IMG/VR virus record: IMGVR_UViG_2534682002_000024
Source of the DNA: a virus
Lineage: Duplodnaviria > Heunggongvirae > Uroviricota > Caudoviricetes
Direction: 5' to 3' (one strand)
Length of the DNA: 40,622 nucleotides
Below are positions 1-36,033 of this stretch, one piece after another. The position numbers were made by a program, and so were the translations under genes. The notes under the pieces were generated by a model, which was not told where the DNA came from, searched no databases, and was given only the letters and a program-made list of their open reading frames with translations. Positions within the stretch are counted from its first letter, which is position 1; every line of letters starts with the position of its first letter.

Positions 1-1251
1 CTACGCTAAACCAATAAAGAACCCGGCAATGGTGGCACTCATCAGGTTAGAAAGTGTCGCCGCCGCCAGCGCGCGTAAACCAAGCTGGGCGATTTCCGGC
101 GCACGGTGTGGCGCAACCGCAGAAAACGCCCCCACCACCACCCCGATAGAACCAAAGTTAGCGAAACCGCACAACGCGAAGGAAATAATCGCCACGGTTT
201 TAGCATCCAGAGTGCCAGCCGTTTGCAGATAGGGTGAGAAATTGAGATAAGCGACAAATTCATTTATTGCCAGTTTCTGTCCAATCAAACTCCCGGCAAG
301 ATTCGCATCACTCCAGTCAACACCCATTACCCACGCCAGTGGGGCCAGCAGATAACCTACAATGGACTCCAGCGAGGCATGTTCAAAACCAAACCAGCCG
401 CCAACGCCGCCGATAATACCGTTAATTAACGCAATGATGGCGACGAATGCCATCACTACTGTCGCCACACCTGCGGCGATTTTCAGCCCGGTCATTGCCC
501 CTGTCGCGGCGGCTTCAATAATGCTTTTTGGCGGTGTTTCGGTGAAAGAGAGGTTATTAAAAGAAACCTGCGAAGATTCCGTAGCCGGGCTTAGCAGGCG
601 GGCAAACAAGATCCCCCCGGGGATCGCCATTAACGATGCCGCCAGCAAATATTCCACAGGCACGCCCAGTGCGGCATAACCAATCATTGTCGAACCAGCA
701 ATCGAGGCCATGCCGCTACAAATCGCTGTAAATAATTCATTGCGATTCAGCCGATCGATAAAGGGCTTCACAATCGCCGGAATTTCGTTTTGCCCGAGGA
801 AAATGGTAGTGACCGCGACGAATGACTCAATCTTGCTGATATTTAATGCTTTCTGGAATATACCGCCGAGAATGCGAATTAAAATCCCCATCACACCGAT
901 GTAGTAGAGAATACTCACCAGTGCAGTGACGAAGATAATTGCCGGTAATACCCTGAAACCAAAGATAAATCCTGCGCCATCAAATAAGGTGTCCATTTTC
1001 GGTCCGACCAGAGAACCGAAGATAAATGCGCTACCCGCGTCGCTGTACGCCATCACTTTATGCACACCAAAAGCGACTTTTTCAGCGACCCAACGCCCTG
1101 GCGGTAACCAAAGCATAATGCCGCCAATCACGACCTGTAACACTAACGCCGCGCCAACGGTACGCAGGCTGATCTTCTTCTTGTTTACTGACAGTAAAAA
1201 CGCAATCGTCAGCAATACCACCATTCCCAGAACACTTCTCATGACATCCAT
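1..1251 (-). CDS. NupC-family concentrative nucleoside transporter (host gene, 3' end runs off window start)
   Basis: 416-aa multi-pass membrane ORF whose N-terminus MDVMRSVLGMVVLL and overall profile match enterobacterial CNT transporters (NupX/PsuT type); recognised from memory, paralog not resolved. Confidence 0.85.
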   Translation of the reverse strand: MDVMRSVLGMVVLLTIAFLLSVNKKKISLRTVGAALVLQVVIGGIMLWLPPGRWVAEKVAFGVHKVMAYSDAGSAFIFGSLVGPKMDTLFDGAGFIFGFRVLPAIIFVTALVSILYYIGVMGILIRILGGIFQKALNISKIESFVAVTTIFLGQNEIPAIVKPFIDRLNRNELFTAICSGMASIAGSTMIGYAALGVPVEYLLAASLMAIPGGILFARLLSPATESSQVSFNNLSFTETPPKSIIEAAATGAMTGLKIAAGVATVVMAFVAIIALINGIIGGVGGWFGFEHASLESIVGYLLAPLAWVMGVDWSDANLAGSLIGQKLAINEFVAYLNFSPYLQTAGTLDAKTVAIISFALCGFANFGSIGVVVGAFSAVAPHRAPEIAQLGLRALAAATLSNLMSATIAGFFIGLA

Positions 1252-1350
1252 AGTGATTATCTCTTCATGTCATATTGGGCGACGGCTTTCTGCCCATCAG
1301 AAATAGCCAGGCCTGCATCTTGCGATACCGGCCCGGCTTGTTATCAACAC

Positions 1351-1565
1351 TTAATGGGTTTTGATGTAGCCGCGCACGCACTCTTCGACTAAGCCCCAGA
1401 ACCAGTCGCTATCAATAGTGATGCCGACTTTGGTATTAGCGGGCTTGCCAAGAACGCCCAGCTCGTCGCAGACGGTACGCCCATAACAAGGGCCACTGTT
1501 GACGTCCACTTCGACGTACATCTCCTGGGTTTTAATGCCATCAGGGTATAGCGCGGCGATTTTTT
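1351..1565 (-). pseudogene. 3' remnant of a host gene truncated by the prophage; C-terminal pattern resembles nucleoside hydrolase family
   Basis: Track ORF 1351..1581 starts with an ATG that falls inside the putative phage end repeats. The tail (PDG...YVEVDV...GRTVCD...[12 protein letters not shown]) resembles IU-nucleoside hydrolase C-termini and sits beside a nucleoside transporter. Family assignment is from memory only. Confidence 0.4.
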
Positions 1566-1674: not shown

Positions 1675-2412
1675 TCATTCACTCTCTTTCAAACCAGTTT
1701 TAACTGTTTGTGGTTTTGGGTAAGGCTGGACTTTGAATAGCTTTGTGTTGAGGCGTTTTTTGGCCCTCTTGTTCAGAAACCGGATGTAACGAAACTGTCG
1801 GAACTTATGAACATTGGCTCTGTCAATATTAGCCCTCAGATGTTCACCTCGTTGTCCGCCTCGTTTAATGGCATTCCTGCAAATCTCGTGATACCACTCG
1901 CCATCAAGTTCATAGAATATTGATTCATGGCTGCCTACATAATCAAAATTGCTTGCCTGATACACGACACCAAGACAGCCACAACGCTCATCTGCAAACG
2001 ACTGAACCCACTGTACCTGCGGATAAAGCTGCCTGATTAGCTTGAGCGCGTAACTGATTGCCCTTGATTCGGAGTTTCTCGGCATACAGTCATGCAGCCA
2101 TAGCCGGTTAAGCTCCATATATTCTCGGTTCTGCGTACCCGTTACGACGCGTGCACCACTGTTTGGGTTAAGGGCGTAACCCCATTGCATTACGCCAACA
2201 AGTTCCCGTTCTGAAAATATGCCCAGATGAAGGTAGGAGTTATTTACGAAACGGTGGCTGTAATGTTTATTGACGATGACCAGTCTGGCCAGCCAGCAAC
2301 TTATTGTCTCAACCCGCAACTCACGGGAGCCATAACCAACGATATTGTCGTTATAGCGAATAAGTTCAGGCGTGCTGATGATTCGGGATGTGACTTGCTT
2401 TCTGTTCCCCAC
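1675..2412 (-). CDS. mom: Mom-like DNA modification protein (acyltransferase-like)
   Basis: 245-aa ORF that is the last gene before the prophage end and overlaps the 3' end of a Com-like zinc-finger gene, which is the com-mom arrangement of Mu. Size is near Mu Mom (about 231 aa). Identity rests on context, not sequence recall. Confidence 0.6.
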
Positions 2413-2566
2413 GACAGGATTTCCTTGTGTATGTGGGGTGCTCTGTGGCGCTCGGAGATGTGATTTGATTGAGGGTTTTACAGCGCGGACATTTTACTTC
2501 CAGATAACTGAAACTGGCCCGTGCCAGTAGCTTATTGCAGTGTCGGCACCGTATGTTTCGATACAT
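2366..2566 (-). CDS. com: Com-like zinc-finger translational activator
   Basis: [14 protein letters not shown]...VKCPRCK has the CxxC...CxxC spacing and residues of Mu Com (IRC.NCNKLL...CPRCK). An AGGAGG Shine-Dalgarno lies 10 nt upstream of the ATG at 2566. The track ORF begins at an upstream ATG (2611) that I consider less likely. Confidence 0.7.
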
Positions 2567-2599
2567 GGCCGCATAACCTCCTGCTTTGTTGTTGATGCC

Positions 2600-2790
2600 T
2601 TTCTCATGCAATCGATCGACAAAAACGATCGATTCGATTTGTTTAATTGATACAACAAATAGATTGAAAAGTCATCAACAATGATTCAGGTAGGTGATTA
2701 TTTACTTAAAGAAAACGAAGAGTTAGGTGGTGAAAACGATCATAAAATGATCATTTTATTGACTTTTTATATAGTGAAGGTAGGATCGCG
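2600..2790 (-). promoter_or_regulatory. GATC-rich candidate Dam/OxyR-regulated mom promoter region
   Basis: Five GATC sites (2614, 2627, 2738, 2749, 2784) within about 175 bp upstream of com in AT-rich DNA. Mu Pmom is controlled through clustered Dam sites. Confidence 0.4.
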
Positions 2791-2979
2791 CGTATATGTA
2801 GTATGTTTCAAATCAATGGGATACTACATACATAAAGAGCGACCCAGATAGCGCGAACTATTCTGGGCCGATTTAGACAATTTTGCATCAATGCTTTACT
2901 TCGAGCTCGTGGCGTATCCTATGATATTCCCCAGTCTCCTGTAAAGCAGAGATGCATAAAAAGGAGATCTTTATCATGG

Positions 2980-3147
2980 ATGAAAGAGCCTGTTTGCCCT
3001 GCCTGTAAGACTCCCTTACAGCTCATCTATCGCCGTTCTCGATCTCAAAATGGCAAGACATACAAACCAAAAAATGCTTCCTGTTTCAGGATGCTGATAT
3101 GTCCTGCCTGTTCTCCCCGGAGGGAAAATACACAAAACGTGCATTAA
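2980..3147 (+). CDS. Unlisted 55-aa double-CPAC zinc-ribbon ORF (MKEPVCPACKTPLQLIYRRSRSQNGKTYKPKNASCFRMLICPACSPRRENTQNVH)
   Basis: Found by manual translation; below the ORF track size cutoff. AGGAG at 2962-2966 precedes it. Two CPAC motifs plus a third Cys suggest a zinc ribbon. It is divergent from com-mom in an otherwise non-coding gap of about 570 bp. Confidence 0.3.
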   Translation: MKEPVCPACKTPLQLIYRRSRSQNGKTYKPKNASCFRMLICPACSPRRENTQNVH

Positions 3148-3185
3148 CAAATTCACCCGGCAGGGAAACCTGCCGGTCGGTATTG

Positions 3186-3431
3186 TTACATCATAGTACC
3201 GTCAGTTCCGGGCTGAACCGGCTCTGGTTGCTCTACGGGTTGAGGCTCATTTTCCGTGCTGTTTTCAGCCGGAGAACGGCCAACCATTCGGGCCAGCACT
3301 TCATCAACATATGCGTCGATTTGTGCCTCAAAATCCTTGCGAACCTGCGCCTTCAGCACGCGGTTCACTTCTTCAGAATAAAGTGCCTGTTTGACAAGCT
3401 CTTCAGTAACCGTGCCTTTAATCTCTGGCAT
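3186..3431 (-). CDS. Hypothetical 81-aa protein with helical N-terminus and acidic proline-rich tail
   Basis: ORF with AAGGAG-like RBS upstream (caaaaggagaatattc-ATG). No recognisable family. Confidence 0.5.
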   Translation of the reverse strand: MPEIKGTVTEELVKQALYSEEVNRVLKAQVRKDFEAQIDAYVDEVLARMVGRSPAENSTENEPQPVEQPEPVQPGTDGTMM

Positions 3432-3466
3432 GAATATTCTCCTTTTGCAGGTATATTGCCCCGTTA

Positions 3467-3649
3467 TCAGAGCGGGGTCGGGTCGTTTGGGGATGACGGT
3501 GCCTGTGCTGTTTTACTGAGTTTTTCAGCTGCCGCATCATCAATTTTACGGCGAATATAATTTCTGATGACCTTATAACCGCCGCTCACCAGATATAACG
3601 CACTGACCACTGCGCAGAAATAAAGCAGCATTGTATGAACGAATGTCAT
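3467..3649 (-). CDS. Hypothetical 60-aa small membrane protein (one N-terminal TM helix, basic C-terminus)
   Basis: Hydrophobic stretch MLLYFCAVVSALYLVSGGY followed by a charged tail. A GC hairpin (CCCCGttatcagaGCGGGG, about 3453-3470) separates it from the next gene. Confidence 0.45.
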   Translation of the reverse strand: MTFVHTMLLYFCAVVSALYLVSGGYKVIRNYIRRKIDDAAAEKLSKTAQAPSSPNDPTPL

Positions 3650-3795
3650 ATAACCTTACCTTTGATATTGACTACATAATTCGTTATCGGGTAAAAACAT
3701 CGAAGCGACTGATAACTACTCCTTCGGTAGTATTTTTATTTTCCTTTATGGGTTAGGTAGCTCCCGCCAGCCGTATCATGACCGGCGGGATTTTT

Positions 3796-5835
3796 TTATT
3801 CTGTTACCGCTTTTTTCACTTCCACCACAATGCTGTCAATCAGCACCGGGTAAGTTGCATTTTTGGTGATATCCGTTACGCGGAGTTTGTCCACCGGGAA
3901 AGTTCCTACTGGTGACTGCGTCAGGGTAAACGCGGCACCATCCTGACCATCAATAACCGGAATAACCTGAAGGCTGTTATTTCCTGCAAAACGGAAGGCC
4001 AGCGTATGCCATTCATTATCAAATGCACCAAAGGTTCCCAGTTTCTGGTTATTTGTTGCCACTTTTGCATTGTGGTACATCACATTCAGGTCTTTTGCGT
4101 CTGTCTGGATGTAGAACGATGCCAGCAGATTATTCCCTGCATCCCCTGTCAGGGTGACACCCTGCGGCAGAGAGGAAACCGGCCAGTAAAGCGCCATGAC
4201 ATACTGGTTTGCCACCAGGTCGCCAGGTACTTTAAAACGACAACTGATTAAACCACCATTTTTCAGCAGTTCAGCACCAGTACCGGCATCATGATCCAGA
4301 TACCAGGATGATTTACCTGTTTCCTTGGTCAGTTTCATTGCCTTACCACCTGTGCCTCCTGCATCACTGATAATTTCAGCTTTACCGCCAGCCGGCTCCC
4401 AGCCCTGGGCTTTCAGATTTCCTTCTGACTCACTGACACGGTAAGACAGCAGTGTTGTGGTTACTGCTTCAGTTTCTGAAGGTGACGGCACTGGTGCTTC
4501 AGTTTCAGAAGATGGAACATCGGCTTTTACTGTGGTTCGCCCTGCATGAGTCAGAACAGCCGTGGCCAGACGGTCAGAAATAATACCCCGGCGCGCCCAG
4601 GCACTGAAATGGCTGGCCCGGTCCGCAGATGTCCAGGTAGCGGCACTGTTACGCCACGTTGAGCCGTAATAACCAATGGATTCAATATCCGGGTCTTCTG
4701 CCGGATTGTTGGTGGGTACATTCACGCCATTTTCATCTGTCATTAATGGAACGAAATGAATGTTTTTATCTGTTTTGTTTTTGTAGCCGCCATAGATTGC
4801 CTGGTATGCTGGTTCATTTTTCTGTTTCCAGAAATACGTGGTATCGCCACAAATCCACGGAACGCCAGCAGCACTGCCACCGGTACACTGTTCCGCCTGT
4901 TCAGCCAGGTCTGCGCGGAATTTTTCCACCATCGCCAGAAACAGCGCAGAATGCTCCGTCGGCTTCGCATCAATATCAAACTCGCCCTGCATCCACACCA
5001 CAGCAAGCAGGCGGTTTTTCGGGTTCTTCGCCAGTGCCGCTTTTGTCCGGCTGATTAAGTCCTTATACAGCGGCTTATCCACACCCCAGCGGGCTGAGTC
5101 CTCTGAAGCACCCGTGCTGTCACTGTACGTGCCGTCAGCACCCGCCGTGAATGCAGAACCACCACGGCAGCAGGGAACCAGCAGAATCCCCGCATCTGCC
5201 GGAATAAACGGCAGCAGTTTTTTGGCAATGTGAAGCCCCTGACCCACGGTGCCATATTGCCCTTTAGCCACATCCGCTTTCGGGTGATTTTTTCCACTCA
5301 TATCCTGCACATCATGCAGACAGTGGTCGGCCAGAATGATGTCGTTATACTGACAGGCTTTACCTCCCGGCGTGACTGTACTGCGACGGGCTAACTGCAT
5401 AATACGCGGTTCGGGGCGGTCATATGTCTCCGGCAGTGGCAGACCTTCACCGTAAGCCATACCGTTTGACTGACCAGCAAGAACCACCACGTAATACCAG
5501 GAAGGGGAGCTGGAAGCAGTTTCATTTCCTGACGGACGGGTATGTGTTTCAGCATTATCCCAGTCTGACGGTTCAGCAGTACCGGCAACATCAGCACTTA
5601 ACGGAATGACCGCACCAATACCCGCTCCGGTAATTTCCACACTCGGATCACCGGATACTGGCCTTACCCACAGGCAATCCCGTGTATTAAAACTGATGAG
5701 ACAGTCAGCAAATGTCATTCCTCCTTTTGTTTCGGCCGGAGGAAAGGGAGCCTCAAGAAATGCCGCTGTACCACCGGAAACTTTAACAGTAAAGTTTCCG
5801 GGCATTGATGATAGTTGAACCCATTTGGACGTCAT
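3796..5835 (-). CDS. 679-aa SGNH/SASA-type carbohydrate esterase with lectin-like beta-sandwich C-terminal domain (cargo gene)
   Basis: VVVLAGQSNGMAYGEG carries the GQSN motif typical of sialate O-acetylesterase-like (SASA/DUF303) SGNH hydrolases. No N-terminal signal peptide. An S/T/P-rich linker precedes a C-terminal region that looks like a concanavalin/laminin-G type domain. It occupies the gin to com-mom interval. Confidence 0.6.
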   Translation of the reverse strand: MTSKWVQLSSMPGNFTVKVSGGTAAFLEAPFPPAETKGGMTFADCLISFNTRDCLWVRPVSGDPSVEITGAGIGAVIPLSADVAGTAEPSDWDNAETHTRPSGNETASSSPSWYYVVVLAGQSNGMAYGEGLPLPETYDRPEPRIMQLARRSTVTPGGKACQYNDIILADHCLHDVQDMSGKNHPKADVAKGQYGTVGQGLHIAKKLLPFIPADAGILLVPCCRGGSAFTAGADGTYSDSTGASEDSARWGVDKPLYKDLISRTKAALAKNPKNRLLAVVWMQGEFDIDAKPTEHSALFLAMVEKFRADLAEQAEQCTGGSAAGVPWICGDTTYFWKQKNEPAYQAIYGGYKNKTDKNIHFVPLMTDENGVNVPTNNPAEDPDIESIGYYGSTWRNSAATWTSADRASHFSAWARRGIISDRLATAVLTHAGRTTVKADVPSSETEAPVPSPSETEAVTTTLLSYRVSESEGNLKAQGWEPAGGKAEIISDAGGTGGKAMKLTKETGKSSWYLDHDAGTGAELLKNGGLISCRFKVPGDLVANQYVMALYWPVSSLPQGVTLTGDAGNNLLASFYIQTDAKDLNVMYHNAKVATNNQKLGTFGAFDNEWHTLAFRFAGNNSLQVIPVIDGQDGAAFTLTQSPVGTFPVDKLRVTDITKNATYPVLIDSIVVEVKKAVTE

Positions 5836-5934
5836 AATAATCAGCCTGTTCCTGAATAAACTGAATTATCATATCCACAGACCGATAAACGCCATTTTGC
5901 GTTAATTCAGTAAAGGCCCAACAAAGAGAGCGTC

Positions 5935-6495
5935 TTATTTTTCCGAAACGCTCGCAGGATAATAACGATAAAGGGTTGAAAGACCGATATCAAAAATAAG
6001 TGCCACCTGTCTTCGACTGACACCCCCGGCCAGTAAACGCCCGACCTGCTCGTATTGTTCCTGCGTGAGACGGCGGGGTCTGCCGCCGGTTCGTCCCCTT
6101 TCACGGGCAGCTGCAAGACCAGCCCGTGTCCGTTCGACAATTAATTCACGCTCCATTTCTGCCAGCGCACCCATTATGTGAAAAAAGAAGCGCCCCATGG
6201 GGGTTGACGTATCAATGTTGTCAGTAAGACTACGAAAATTTATCCCCTGTTGCTGTAATTCATCTGTCAGCGCAACAAGGTGGCGCATACTGCGCCCCAG
6301 CCTGTCCAGTTTCCAGACCATCAGCGTGTCACCGGGTTTTAGTTTCTTCAGTGCCCGCTTCAGTCCCGGCCGCTGTGTCGTTTTACCACTCATTTTGTCT
6401 TCAAAAATCTGCTCACATCCTGCACATTCCAGCGCATTTCTTTGTAAACCGGTGTTCTGGTCATTTGTTGATACGCGTATATAGCCAATCAGCAT
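5935..6495 (-). CDS. gin: Gin/Pin/Hin-family serine DNA invertase
   Basis: MLIGYIRVSTNDQNTGLQRNALECAGCEQIFEDK...WKLDRLGRSMRHL is nearly identical in pattern to Gin/Pin. 186 aa. Transcribed away from the adjacent invertible segment. Confidence 0.9.
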   Translation of the reverse strand: MLIGYIRVSTNDQNTGLQRNALECAGCEQIFEDKMSGKTTQRPGLKRALKKLKPGDTLMVWKLDRLGRSMRHLVALTDELQQQGINFRSLTDNIDTSTPMGRFFFHIMGALAEMERELIVERTRAGLAAARERGRTGGRPRRLTQEQYEQVGRLLAGGVSRRQVALIFDIGLSTLYRYYPASVSEK

Positions 6496-6552: not shown

Positions 6553-6578
6553 CCTGAAACCTCGGTTTACGGGATACG
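6553..6578. repeat. gix-like crossover site (gin-proximal)
   Basis: GAAACCTCGGTTTACGGGA resembles the Mu gix core (AAACCGAGGTTT) and is an inverted copy of the site at 7976-8001; 16 nt are identical. Confidence 0.7.
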
Positions 6579-6929
6579 GTAAACAGGGCCGCGAATGCCC
6601 TGCCATCAAACGGTACGGCTGTTGCAGCAAGCAGGCTGGCAAATGCCCGCAGAATCAATGGTGTCGCCTTTGACGGCACGCAGGATATAAACATTACGTC
6701 AGGAATGCCGGAATCAACGGCCAATCAGCGTTATGTTACAGGGGTAAGACTGGGAGCGCAGGCATTAAGCGGCGGACTGGAATATAATTACTCCCTGTCA
6801 TCAGGAAATGTGATTACCGGTTTTAAGACTGACGGAGACTGGGAAATGCGTGGTGGTGATGACCGTGTTTATTACAGACAGATACAATATTGTATTAATG
6901 GGCATTGGGTATCCGCTGCAAGTATTTAA
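6558..6929 (+). CDS. Silent alternative tail-fiber C-terminal cassette (S'v-like), no start codon of its own
   Basis: The frame opens directly at the gix site and reads NLGLRDTVNRAANALP...INITSGMPESTANQRY..., closely parallel to S residues NLGLRETVNKAADALP...INITSGMTQSTADGRY..., then diverges at the tip. The track lists only the ATG-started 3' part (6705..6929). Confidence 0.7.
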   Translation, partial: NLGLRDTVNRAANALPSNGTAVAASRLANARRINGVAFDGTQDINITSGMPESTANQRYVTGVRLGAQALSGGLEYNYSLSSGNVITGFKTDGDWEMRGGDDRVYYRQIQYCINGHWVSAASI

Positions 6930-7050
6930 TTAACGGGGGCATAGCACACAGCAGCCAGCATCTGAAATATGCGTTATTTCAGACAAGCATTGCCTGTATA
7001 TGGCGATAGTATTATTCCTGTTTTTATCATTGATTTACATGGTGATGTTT

Positions 7051-7572
7051 ATGCAACTGATTAATGTCAAACGATATTACCCGAAAGACAAACCCTATGG
7101 TGAGGATGTTCAGTATTTCCAGAGTGAGGACGGAAGGGATTTTTATGAATCTATCCCGCTTTTTACAAAGAAATACAAACTCTGTATTTCGCCTGTAACG
7201 GGTATTATCTGCTCTGTTGCTGAAGATGTCTCTGCTTTATATCCGGCAGGTTTTACTGTTGTTGAAGTGGACGAACTGCCGGAAGGTGTGAATATTGACG
7301 GTAACTGGCAGTTTTCTGATGGCCTGATATCAAAGGTGCCGGTAAACTGGAAGACGGTTGCTGAAAAGCGTCGCTCATCGCTGCTCCAGGAAGCCAACGA
7401 AACCGTGGATGACTGGAAAACAGAATTAAAACTGGACATGATTAGCGATGAAAATAAATTACAGCTGACGCGCTGGATGGCGTATATCCGACAGCTTAAA
7501 GAAATGCACTTTAATGATATTGCCAGTGAGGGGCATTACCAGGCGATTCCCTGGCCGGAAAAACCGGAATAA
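7051..7572 (+). CDS. Tail fiber assembly protein (Tfa/U-type chaperone)
   Basis: C-terminus ...TRWMAYIRQLKEMHFNDIASEGHYQAIPWPEKPE matches the conserved Tfa C-terminal pattern. Start placed at ATG 7051 (MQLINVKRYY) rather than the track start at 7000. Confidence 0.75.
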   Translation: MQLINVKRYYPKDKPYGEDVQYFQSEDGRDFYESIPLFTKKYKLCISPVTGIICSVAEDVSALYPAGFTVVEVDELPEGVNIDGNWQFSDGLISKVPVNWKTVAEKRRSSLLQEANETVDDWKTELKLDMISDENKLQLTRWMAYIRQLKEMHFNDIASEGHYQAIPWPEKPE

Positions 7573-7606: not shown

Positions 7607-8518
7607 TTACACTGAACTTACCGTTCTCCAGGTATTATTAATATAAATCTGAACCGGGCGATAATAGACCCCACCGATATTGTCCGCAGACCGGGAGCCG
7701 GTTTCCTGCACGTTAATACCGGAAAGCATACAACCGGAAGGTGCGCTGTAATTCCATGACATTTCATTGCCTCCGGGTGAATGATAGCTCTGTGCTCCAA
7801 GCTGAACATTCTGTACATACCGGCCATCTGCGGTTGACTGCGTCATTCCTGACGTGATGTTGATATCCAGCGTTCCGTCAAAAGGAACACCATTAATATT
7901 TCTTGGGGTGGCGAGTCTGTTTGCTGCCACGGCGGTTCCAGCCGATGGCAGGGCATCAGCAGCCTTATTTACCGTTTCCCGTAAACCGAGGTTATCGATA
8001 AAGGTTCCTTTGTCCTGGATATCCGCGCCATTCTGGTCCCTGCGCAGGTAACGGTTATCACCTTCGCTCCTGCTGTAAACATCCAGATTATTACGGGCGG
8101 TTTCCGCATTCTCCAGGTCGGCAAGGTTCTGATCCTTCGCCAGGGCATTAACGTCAGCGGGACCAAGACTGTTTTTTGTGGCAAGCGTCCCCAGACCAAG
8201 ATAACCACGGGCCAGACGCTGGGCTTCCGCACCGGCATCAGCAATTTCTTTCAGGTTGTTTTTCCGGGAAAAGGCATTCGCAGCGATAATGGCTTTAATG
8301 GACAGCGTAAGCTGGTTTAACTGCGCCTTATCCGGCTGAATACTGGCTTCAGCCAGAATATTCAGCAGTTCGGCCTGGAGAATATTCAGCCAGTCCTGAC
8401 CAATCCAGCTGATACCTTTTTGTCCGTCACCTTCGGTAAACCAGGTGGTGGTATTACTCTGCGCCGGAGCCAGTTCAGGCATATTCGCCACGCCGGAATT
8501 ATTATCAACATGGAACAT
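7607..8518 (-). CDS. Tail fiber protein S (constant N-terminal part plus currently expressed variable C-terminus)
   Basis: Follows baseplate genes and contains the gix site at about residue 175. Start placed at ATG 8518, which overlaps the upstream stop as TAATG. Confidence 0.75.
   Translation of the reverse strand: MFHVDNNSGVANMPELAPAQSNTTTWFTEGDGQKGISWIGQDWLNILQAELLNILAEASIQPDKAQLNQLTLSIKAIIAANAFSRKNNLKEIADAGAEAQRLARGYLGLGTLATKNSLGPADVNALAKDQNLADLENAETARNNLDVYSRSEGDNRYLRRDQNGADIQDKGTFIDNLGLRETVNKAADALPSAGTAVAANRLATPRNINGVPFDGTLDINITSGMTQSTADGRYVQNVQLGAQSYHSPGGNEMSWNYSAPSGCMLSGINVQETGSRSADNIGGVYYRPVQIYINNTWRTVSSV
7976..8001. repeat. gix-like crossover site inside S
   Basis: CCCGTAAACCGAGGTTATCGATAA closely resembles Mu gix (TTCCTGTAAACCGAGGTTTTGGATAA, from memory) and is inverted relative to the site at 6553-6578. 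Confidence 0.7.
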
Positions 8519-21924: not shown

Positions 21925-22100
21925 TCCGGCAGCATAGGCCGGGAATTTTCAGGGCGGGTTTTGCGGGATTTCAGGAAGTGCTTTCAGGGGAAAAATACAA
22001 AGGCGCTTCACGCAGATTTTAAAGCCCGTTAAATTCAGGTTAGAAAATCACGACACGCGCCTGAAGGGGGTAAGGTAATGCATTTGCATACCTTAAACAA

Positions 22101-29826: not shown

Positions 29827-29897
29827 TGTTACGCTGTCTCATGATGTTCTCTGAGTCAGCGTAACGGTGAAGGAAAGGCGGCAGGCTTTGCGGAATA

Positions 29898-30323
29898 TCA
29901 GAAAAGTGGCGGTTGCGTTCTTGCCAGATGCAGACGGCGCTGTTCACGTATGACGGTATAAATCTGGGTTTCTGACATCCGGTAATGGCGGCGAAGGGAT
30001 TCAATTTTCTCGCCCCGGTCCCAGCGCGAAAATATCTCATTGTTTCGCAGCTCGGCAAAGAGAGATTCCCCGACCGGCAGGTAATAACCCCGTCCGCCCA
30101 TATAGGCTGCCTGAGCCGCAGCCACCTTGCGTGCCAGTTTACCGGCCAGTACCGGCTCAATCCCCTGACGCTGAAGTTCTGCGCCGGTGACTTCAACCAG
30201 TTCTGACAGGGTCCGCGGCCAGTTCTTTTTGAGAACATCATCAGGGATGTCATCAAGGCGGTCGATAAGGGCGTGCAGTTGCTCACTGTCACCACCAAAC
30301 ATGCTCATCTGAGTTTCTGCCAT
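29898..30323 (-). CDS. Mor/C-family transcriptional activator
   Basis: 141 aa; the C-terminal part (GRGYYLP ... IYTVIREQRRLHLARTQPPLF) parallels Mu Mor as I recall it. Whether it is the Mor or the C equivalent is not resolved. Confidence 0.7.
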   Translation of the reverse strand: MAETQMSMFGGDSEQLHALIDRLDDIPDDVLKKNWPRTLSELVEVTGAELQRQGIEPVLAGKLARKVAAAQAAYMGGRGYYLPVGESLFAELRNNEIFSRWDRGEKIESLRRHYRMSETQIYTVIREQRRLHLARTQPPLF

Positions 30324-35482: not shown

Positions 35483-35755
35483 TTACCCCTGCTGATTAAA
35501 TTCATTACCTTTAATAACCCCGGAACTCATGTTCATATCTTTCATGAGCGCTCTGGCTTTCATTGCCACAAGTTCAGCAAAGTCTCTGCTTTCCGCGAGC
35601 ATAACCACTCCAAAAATCATGGCGGGTCCATCACCTTTCTGCTTTATCCCGGTTGAACGTATGTCCAGACTTACCCCCATGCGCACTGTTCCATCAGCGT
35701 TTTTATGGATAACGTGCTCCTTGTATTCGAAAATAATGCGTACGACTTTACTCAT
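35483..35755 (-). CDS. Hypothetical small early protein, paralog B
   Basis: MSKVVRIIFEYKEH...; the DNA around both start codons is also similar. Confidence 0.45.
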   Translation of the reverse strand: MSKVVRIIFEYKEHVIHKNADGTVRMGVSLDIRSTGIKQKGDGPAMIFGVVMLAESRDFAELVAMKARALMKDMNMSSGVIKGNEFNQQG

Positions 35756-36033
35756 CCTCTGGTCCTCGTTCTGTTTGGATAACTGACCCGGCGTCTGACC
35801 TCACGGCAGAACCGAATCATGGCATTAAAGGCTTCTTCCTCCGTCACCGCTTCCGGTATCCCCGGAACCAGTAACTGCTCCTGTTCATCACGTCCATGAC
35901 GCGCCATAACCTCAATCACATGCCGTACCGTGGCAGGCTTTCCGGCAACTATCGGCAATGCACCTTCCGGCAGGACGTAACCAAACTCAATAAGACCACT
36001 CGACCACGCCCATGCAATGAGATTTTTTTTCAC
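35752..36033 (-). CDS. Hypothetical early protein
   Basis: 93-aa ORF, translationally coupled. Confidence 0.4.
   Translation of the reverse strand: MKKNLIAWAWSSGLIEFGYVLPEGALPIVAGKPATVRHVIEVMARHGRDEQEQLLVPGIPEAVTEEEAFNAMIRFCREVRRRVSYPNRTRTRG

Follow-up and report, generated by a model that had tools for sequence, protein, structure and literature searches.

A NanS-p-type sialate O-acetylesterase gene with an exchanged N-terminal domain between gin and com-mom of an Sp18-type Mu-like prophage

The stretch of DNA analysed here (the window) comprises the 40,622 nucleotides of the IMG/VR virus record IMGVR_UViG_2534682002_000024 and contains a Mu-like prophage. Between its gin-type DNA invertase gene and its com-mom genes lies an intact open reading frame (ORF) of 679 amino acids (aa), from ATG to stop (Table 1). 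The gene is the Mu-like-prophage (Sp18-type) allele of NanS-p. Its product is identical to ECs_4993 of prophage Sp18 of Escherichia coli O157:H7 Sakai at 675 of 679 aa (99%), and its aa 102-673 share 78% identity with the NanS-p (gp44) of the Stx2 phage 1717. An earlier note on this DNA had treated the gene as one not previously known; this does not hold, since it is ECs_4993 at 99% identity and belongs to an experimentally characterized family. The gene has been public since the Sakai sequence, in which ECs_4993 (2040 nt) is annotated 'hypothetical protein', and at least 999 public contigs carry the exact window protein, which is named there 'sialate O-acetylesterase' or 'DUF6645 domain-containing protein'. 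The domain architecture described here is a swap of the N-terminal module on a Mu-type carrier, in a family already characterized. ECs4993-4995 are named in no paper of the literature searched, and no Mu-like carrier of nanS-p is mentioned in the NanS-p literature searched, which did not cover Rangel 2016 and Saile 2016.

Table 1. Features of the esterase gene and of the region from gin to mom (window positions)
Feature	Position	Strand	Basis
nanS-p-type sialate O-acetylesterase gene, 679 aa, Sp18 ECs_4993 orthologue	3796..5835	-	ORF, phrog_143, PDB, ECs_4993 identity
Domain X, aa 1-80, small all-beta, at DUF1737 position	5596..5835	-	weak phrog_4772 match, AlphaFold2 (AF2) model
Linker 1, aa 81-112, disordered, ending ...ASSSPSW	5500..5595	-	predicted local distance difference test (pLDDT) below 50; S/T/P-rich low complexity
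SGNH/SASA esterase core, aa 113-430	4546..5499	-	3pt5 match, Pfam SASA, block residues
Linker 2, S/T/P/E-rich, aa 431-458	4462..4545	-	sequence read directly
C-terminal lectin-like jelly-roll domain (DUF6645), aa 459-679	3799..4461	-	6yp6 match, Pfam DUF6645
DUF1378 gene, 60 aa, N-terminal hydrophobic helix, second of trio	3467..3649	-	Pfam DUF1378, E 1e-38
DUF826 gene, 81 aa, third of trio	3186..3431	-	Pfam DUF826, E 3e-15
Terminator-like hairpin (CCGGCAGG-TTTC-CCTGCCGG, then GTGAATTTGTT), closes trio	3146..3176	-	by eye; hairpin not reported by consensus scan
Opposite-strand gene, frameshifted in window	2681..3147	+	ORF list; phrog_26524 match
com-mom, downstream edge of cargo region	1675..2566	-	Pfam Zn_ribbon_Com, Mom
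gin-type DNA invertase, upstream edge of cargo region	5935..6495	-	Pfam Resolvase+HTH_7

The Pfam family SASA was matched by aa 116-312 (E 6.6e-12) and DUF6645 by aa 524-642 (E 4e-70), while phrog_143 of the PHROGs collection covered aa 62-677 (E = 0). Among PDB entries, aa 104-428 matched 3pt5, the E. coli 9-O-acetyl-N-acetylneuraminate esterase NanS/YjhS (E 2e-118), and aa 459-674 matched 6yp6 (E 3e-112), which is deposited as 'NanS-p' and is the lectin-like jelly-roll domain of vb_24B_21 of phage phi24B (PMC10462455). These matches bear out the earlier reading of a GQSN-type SGNH/SASA core, an S/T/P-rich linker and a lectin-like C-terminus; the SASA family was found in the central region, where it had been expected, and the C-terminus is a lectin-like jelly-roll. 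All four NanS-type SGNH blocks were found, namely GQS123N (GQSN being aa 121-124), G226, QGE283-285 and RASH409, and residues S123, G226, QGE283-285 and H409 are invariant across six alleles. The lectin-site aromatics Y545, Y550, Y575 and F646 align with Y510, Y515, Y540 and F611 of vb_24B_21, and all four are kept in the window allele and in most other alleles. The SGNH blocks and the sugar-site aromatics were defined in PMC10462455, where the latter are the proposed sugar binders. No hydrophobic run resembling a signal peptide was seen when the N-terminus was read directly, without a predictor, in agreement with the earlier note. A single-sequence AF2 prediction of the whole protein reached a pLDDT of 33, and the model was not used. 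The end of linker 1, ASSSPSW (aa 107-113, nt ~5497-5517), resembles the SSP-containing motifs at the proposed autoproteolytic sites of phi24B gp84 (bioRxiv 10.64898/2026.04.10.717836); the likeness may be a coincidence in an S/P-rich linker.

With the NanS-p proteins of Stx and other lambdoid prophages (933W L0105/z1466, phi24B vb_24B_21/gp84, phage 1717 gp44) the window protein shares the SASA core (83% identity to phage 1717), the DUF6645 domain (79%), matching SGNH blocks and sugar-site aromatics, P/S/T-rich linkers and the lack of a signal peptide, and in both settings DUF1378 and DUF826 genes come next. It differs from them in several respects. DUF1737 is absent and an unrelated domain, here called domain X, stands instead; the carrier is a transposable Mu-type myovirus prophage; and the gene lies between gin and com-mom and not, as in lambdoid phages, in the late region downstream of stx/Q and upstream of the holin gene S. 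The chromosomal NanS (YjhS, 3pt5) has the same catalytic domain with the motifs GQSN, QGE and R-x-S-H but consists of a single domain of ~330 aa; domain X, two linkers and the lectin-like C-domain are present in addition in the window protein.

DUF1737 is replaced in the window protein by the unrelated domain X. No Pfam match was obtained for aa 1-104, whereas the NanS-p of phage 1717 has DUF1737 at aa 3-50, and an hhalign comparison of domain X with the DUF1737 region gave a probability of 0.7%. AF2 run with a 12-sequence alignment returned a confident all-beta domain of six strands, with a pLDDT of about 90 over aa 10-70 and a disordered tail behind it; DUF1737 consists of a helix plus three strands (bioRxiv 10.64898/2026.04.10.717836). 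An exhaustive phmmer search with aa 1-105 against 1.84 billion representatives gave only five hits, of which P0005 was rejected as a low-complexity repeat match; E. coli fragments and one Salmonella relative were all that it yielded. A profile search added Salmonella proteins (E 1e-13 to 1e-18), including complete stand-alone proteins of 81 aa that belong to phrog_4772. Domain X was not found in two scans of the GTDB species representatives, nor was a paralogue found among the ORFs of the window, and a fold search with it returned no known decoration or docking domain.

Homologous domain X is encoded in lambdoid prophages as a separate ORF of 81 aa beside an esterase gene (L025; Salmonella P0022-P0027, phrog_4772), unlike the fused form of the window. 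In the IMG/VR lambdoid prophage L025 the domain-X ORF is placed between tail genes I and J. It shares the overlap ATGA, which has GGAGG just upstream, with the start of a gene for a SASA+DUF6645 protein of 685 aa, whose identity to the window protein, counted from the linker on, is 49%; the arrangement indicates that the two genes are translationally coupled. In Salmonella lambdoid prophages (L006-L008) the 81-aa domain-X ORF directly follows the tail-fibre and fibre-assembly genes, and its end is overlapped by the gene of a 343-aa DUF6645 protein. A few kb away from this pair are toxin genes of the ArtA-like (Pertussis_S1) and CdtB-like (Exo_endo_phos) types as well as two DUF1353 genes, which makes the prophage arm rich in cargo. 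Like DUF1737, domain X thus occurs either fused to or separate from NanS-type esterases, always alongside them and in late or tail regions. Three further NanS-like esterases of Salmonella (P0011, P0014, P0017) begin with other short N-termini (MSRRVMSYSGYPLTVL..., MGIFIGLTPGTVQ...), which suggests that the NanS-type family has more than two alternative N-terminal modules.

The Mu-like alleles are mosaic, and identities taken domain by domain reveal recombination within the cassette. The N-terminal 80 aa are common to Mu-like alleles only, at 56-99% identity, while the esterase and C-terminal domains of the window protein are closer to those of phage 1717 than to those of other Mu-like alleles (67-70% and 39-73% identity, respectively). 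The pattern is clearest in the O91:H21 allele, which compared with the window allele is 99% identical in the N-domain, 67% in the esterase and 39% in the C-domain; for the two genes that follow, the values are 60% (DUF1378) and 100% (DUF826). At the DNA level, similarity to nanS-p of Stx phages is confined to window positions 3815-5497, a span bounded by the first linker at one end and a point just upstream of the stop codon at the other. Linker 1 is accordingly the recombination joint, as seen in the start of similarity at 5497 and in the shift of the identity profile. [quoted passage not shown] The data show recombination at the level of the cassette between Mu-like and lambdoid prophages of the same cell. 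The ratio of nonsynonymous to synonymous substitution rates (dN/dS) in the esterase and C-domains is 0.06-0.2. Domain X is under purifying selection as well; between the window and TOE17 alleles the proportion of differing sites is 0.24 for nonsynonymous (pN) and 0.77 for synonymous (pS) sites, the latter being saturated.

The window invertase shares 75% aa identity with Mu Gin and the window Mom 79% with Mu Mom; com extends over 2366-2566, with its start as given by the Prokaryotic Genome Annotation Pipeline (PGAP), and mom over 1675-2412. The interval between gin and com measures ~3.3 kb in the window and 94 bp in Mu (gin stop at 35673, com start at 35768), and from window 2344 to 6105 no DNA similarity to Mu was detected by blastn. 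This confirms the statement of the earlier note that Mu has only a short sequence here and no such gene. Its further statement that a single gene fills the gap was correct as to the presence of the esterase gene but not as to the number, as four genes occupy the interval: the esterase gene, a DUF1378 gene, a DUF826 gene and a gene on the opposite strand. The latter is intact at 154 aa in O26 RM10386 and also in Sakai (ECs_4996), and is frameshifted in CFSAN027343 as in the window. Its product has CxxC pairs in the C-terminal part, and the prophages of M1 and TOE17 have another gene, of 86 aa, in its place. The hairpin 3' of DUF826 bears a T-rich tail. A second hairpin (TCCCGCC...GGCGGGA, 3761-3797) lies directly past the esterase stop and is preceded by A7; on the plus strand it reads as a stem followed by T7 and resembles a terminator that would stop antisense transcripts running into the esterase gene.

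The genes nanS-p, DUF1378 and DUF826 form a cassette common to lambdoid and Mu-like phages, as follows from the complete trio in the Stx2 phage Stx2_14040, where it is followed by the holin gene, and from the succession of nanS-p and a DUF826 protein gene in phage 1717. In Stx phages the cassette is flanked by stx on one side and the holin gene on the other, and PMC10462455 likewise describes the same two small genes as lying between nanS-p and S. In Sakai Sp18 (5040971-5079729) the order is invertase ECs_4992, ECs_4993, ECs_4994, ECs_4995, the opposite-strand ECs_4996, com and mom, identical to that of the window from gin to mom, although Sp18 occupies a different insertion site (sorM). At a coverage of 80% or higher, at least 168 of 5426 complete E. 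coli genomes carry the gin-to-mom stretch in full; window-type com-mom genes are present in 226 genomes, and these 168 are among them. Six E. coli Mu-like prophages were inspected, namely Sakai Sp18 and those of CFSAN027343, O26 RM10386, mouse strain M1, TOE17 and O91:H21 FWSEC0008. Every one of them encodes a DUF6645 protein of 679-689 aa together with DUF1378 and DUF826 between the tail-fibre/gin region and com-mom. Their insertion loci differ (sorM, lsrC, a prophage portal gene, flgL, ypdB and a hydrolase gene), and their N-terminal domains diverge by up to 44%. A Salmonella Mu-like prophage has Mu-type baseplate genes, a tail fibre gene, an invertase gene, two small ORFs and a domain-X esterase gene, inside which the contig ends. 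The cassette is a stable, long-standing component of the Sp18 lineage and not a one-off capture. Conservation of the gene at this position in all Mu-like phages, which would have spoken against the earlier view of it as cargo, was found in part: the gene is kept throughout the Sp18-type E. coli lineage, and a related esterase gene lies 3' of gin in Salmonella, but Mu has none.

The spacer of 99 bp between gin and the esterase ORF contains no obvious terminator. The Mu C-site pattern TTAT-N6-ATAA has no match in the window, and a scan for sigma-70 promoters remained at background level. A motif of 22 nt, CTGAWATYCCGCAAARCCYGCC, occurs exactly twice in the window (0.01 expected), at 21953-21974 and 29880-29901 (-), one copy being upstream of the head protease/scaffold gene and the other upstream of lys. 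The motif probably represents the phage's late-activator (C-type) promoter element; the esterase gene (nanS-p) and com-mom have no copy upstream. Sp18 is reported to be intact yet not inducible by mitomycin, i.e. not SOS-inducible (PMC2669165), and its regulatory logic is therefore unlike that of Stx phages.

Taken together, the gene likely encodes an active sialate 9-O-acetylesterase with a carbohydrate-binding C-domain, which would act extracellularly, after lysis or on particles, and supply N-acetylneuraminic acid (Neu5Ac) from the O-acetylated sialic acids of mucin. The substrate is judged from close relatives, for which it has been shown to be the 9-O-acetylated sialic acid of host mucin (PMC8065619, PMC10462455); the NanS-p alleles of EDL933 and O104:H4 deacetylate 9-O-acetylated Neu5Ac (Neu5,9Ac2) as well as glycans of mucin, and they enable growth on Neu5,9Ac2 (PMC8065619). 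By the same comparison, the window enzyme would remove the 9-O-acetyl group from Neu5,9Ac2 and from O-acetylated mucin sialoglycans, with the lectin-like jelly-roll acting as a carbohydrate-binding module. The timing of expression and the route of release are likewise modelled on the relatives. As the protein is made without a secretion signal, it would most likely meet its substrate at phage lysis or while attached to particles, and O-acetylated sialic acid would be turned into Neu5Ac, which E. coli can catabolize. NanS-p enzymes open the O-acetylated sialic acids of gut mucus to pathogenic E. coli, and STEC strains carry many copies. The present gene adds a further class of nanS-p alleles, on a transposable phage that is not SOS-inducible, and this class may have been missed where nanS-p was recognized through a Stx/lambdoid context or through DUF1737. 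The swap of DUF1737 for an unrelated module under selection, fused here and split elsewhere, bears directly on the questions whether such enzymes are virion-borne in general and whether particle specificity is set by the N-terminal module.

Another proposal differs only in the site of action: domain X would dock an oligomer of the esterase on the Mu-type particle, at a capsid hexon, the tail or a fibre, for transit through mucus or adhesion to it. The precedent, which makes the virion association suggested in the earlier note a reasonable idea, is phi24B, in which gp84 (NanS-p) is an abundant virion protein and capsid decoration whose DUF1737 occupies, as a hexamer, the pore of the T=9 capsid's central hexons, with later cleavage removing the esterase and lectin parts (bioRxiv 10.64898/2026.04.10.717836). 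Domain X stands exactly at the DUF1737 position, ahead of a disordered linker, and occurs like DUF1737 either fused or as a stand-alone unit of ~81 aa. In a lambdoid prophage the gene of the stand-alone form, placed between tail genes I and J, is translationally coupled to that of its esterase; moreover, domain X is retained with the Mu-like backbone where the enzyme part has been exchanged. However, anchoring in phi24B relies on the very DUF1737 that the window protein lacks, and the split forms and the outcome of the fold search weigh against a simple tether. The split form would uncouple the anchor from the enzyme unless the two associate non-covalently, a location beside a non-homologous flank could account for the linkage of domain X to the backbone, and the late-promoter motif is missing upstream of the esterase gene. 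Display on the virion is considered possible but doubtful. That domain X is a docking or oligomerization module in place of the DUF1737 capsid anchor is put forward as its most appealing reading but with similar caution, by analogy and from gene position. A wider generalization, to be regarded as rather speculative, is that NanS-type esterases ride on interchangeable N-terminal docking modules matched to the particle; phi24B-like capsids would be served by DUF1737, Mu-type and some lambdoid particles by domain X, and there may be other modules. If this were true, an Sp18-type myovirus would display a sialate esterase and a lectin on its virion, with a role in transit through or retention in mucus, and would have in them a bacterial-virus equivalent of the haemagglutinin-esterases by which influenza C virus and coronaviruses destroy receptors.

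The earlier note had also suggested that the enzyme strips O-acetyl groups from the O-antigen or capsule of the host bacterium, which would expose receptors or convert the serotype. The gene does adjoin the tail-fibre/host-range region, SGNH esterases are known on phage tailspikes, and deacetylation of lipopolysaccharide by NanS-p was raised as a possibility in PMC8065619. This suggestion is disfavoured, and appears improbable, because of the close identity to enzymes of proven sialate specificity: the Stx-phage NanS-p proteins that share the catalytic domain and the NanS of 3pt5 are both active on sialic acid. The window protein furthermore has neither a signal peptide nor a tail-fibre-like N-terminal adaptor, and sialylated surface polymers are not known as a trait of its typical hosts (O157, O26, O91). 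It is very unlikely that the cassette is a decaying recombination remnant from a lambdoid prophage without function in the Mu-like phage, for although the adjoining opposite-strand gene is frameshifted in the window and lambdoid alleles contribute to a mosaic esterase part, none of the six inspected E. coli Mu-like prophages has a broken ORF in spite of the protein divergence in domain X, the dN/dS values are low with synonymous sites of domain X saturated, and every catalytic residue is kept.

Some further features of the element were recorded. Two GATC sites at ~2610-2635, some 45-70 nt upstream of the com start, fall within a palindromic stretch (ATCGATCG...GTCGATCGAT), and the pair recalls the Dam/OxyR control region of Mu Pmom. 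Alignment to LC727881, in which the Mu-like insert is annotated, put the prophage end at ~1547; in the host flank, window 1-1546, a nucleoside transporter-like protein is encoded, together with a short piece of a disrupted gene. The scatter of prophage copies over sorM, lsrC, flgL, ypdB and other prophages fits transposition, as expected. The element measures 39,968 bp in LC727881 (35677-75644; window 1547-40622), compared with 36,717 bp for Mu, and ~3.3 kb of the difference is due to the cargo region. An invertible tail-fibre segment of ~1.4 kb beside gin is enclosed by inverted arms of 179 nt (6558-6736 and 7815-7993, 75% complementary). The segment, which is smaller than the G segment of Mu, contains a fibre-assembly gene (7000-7572, +) and an alternative fibre C-terminus (6705-6929, +).

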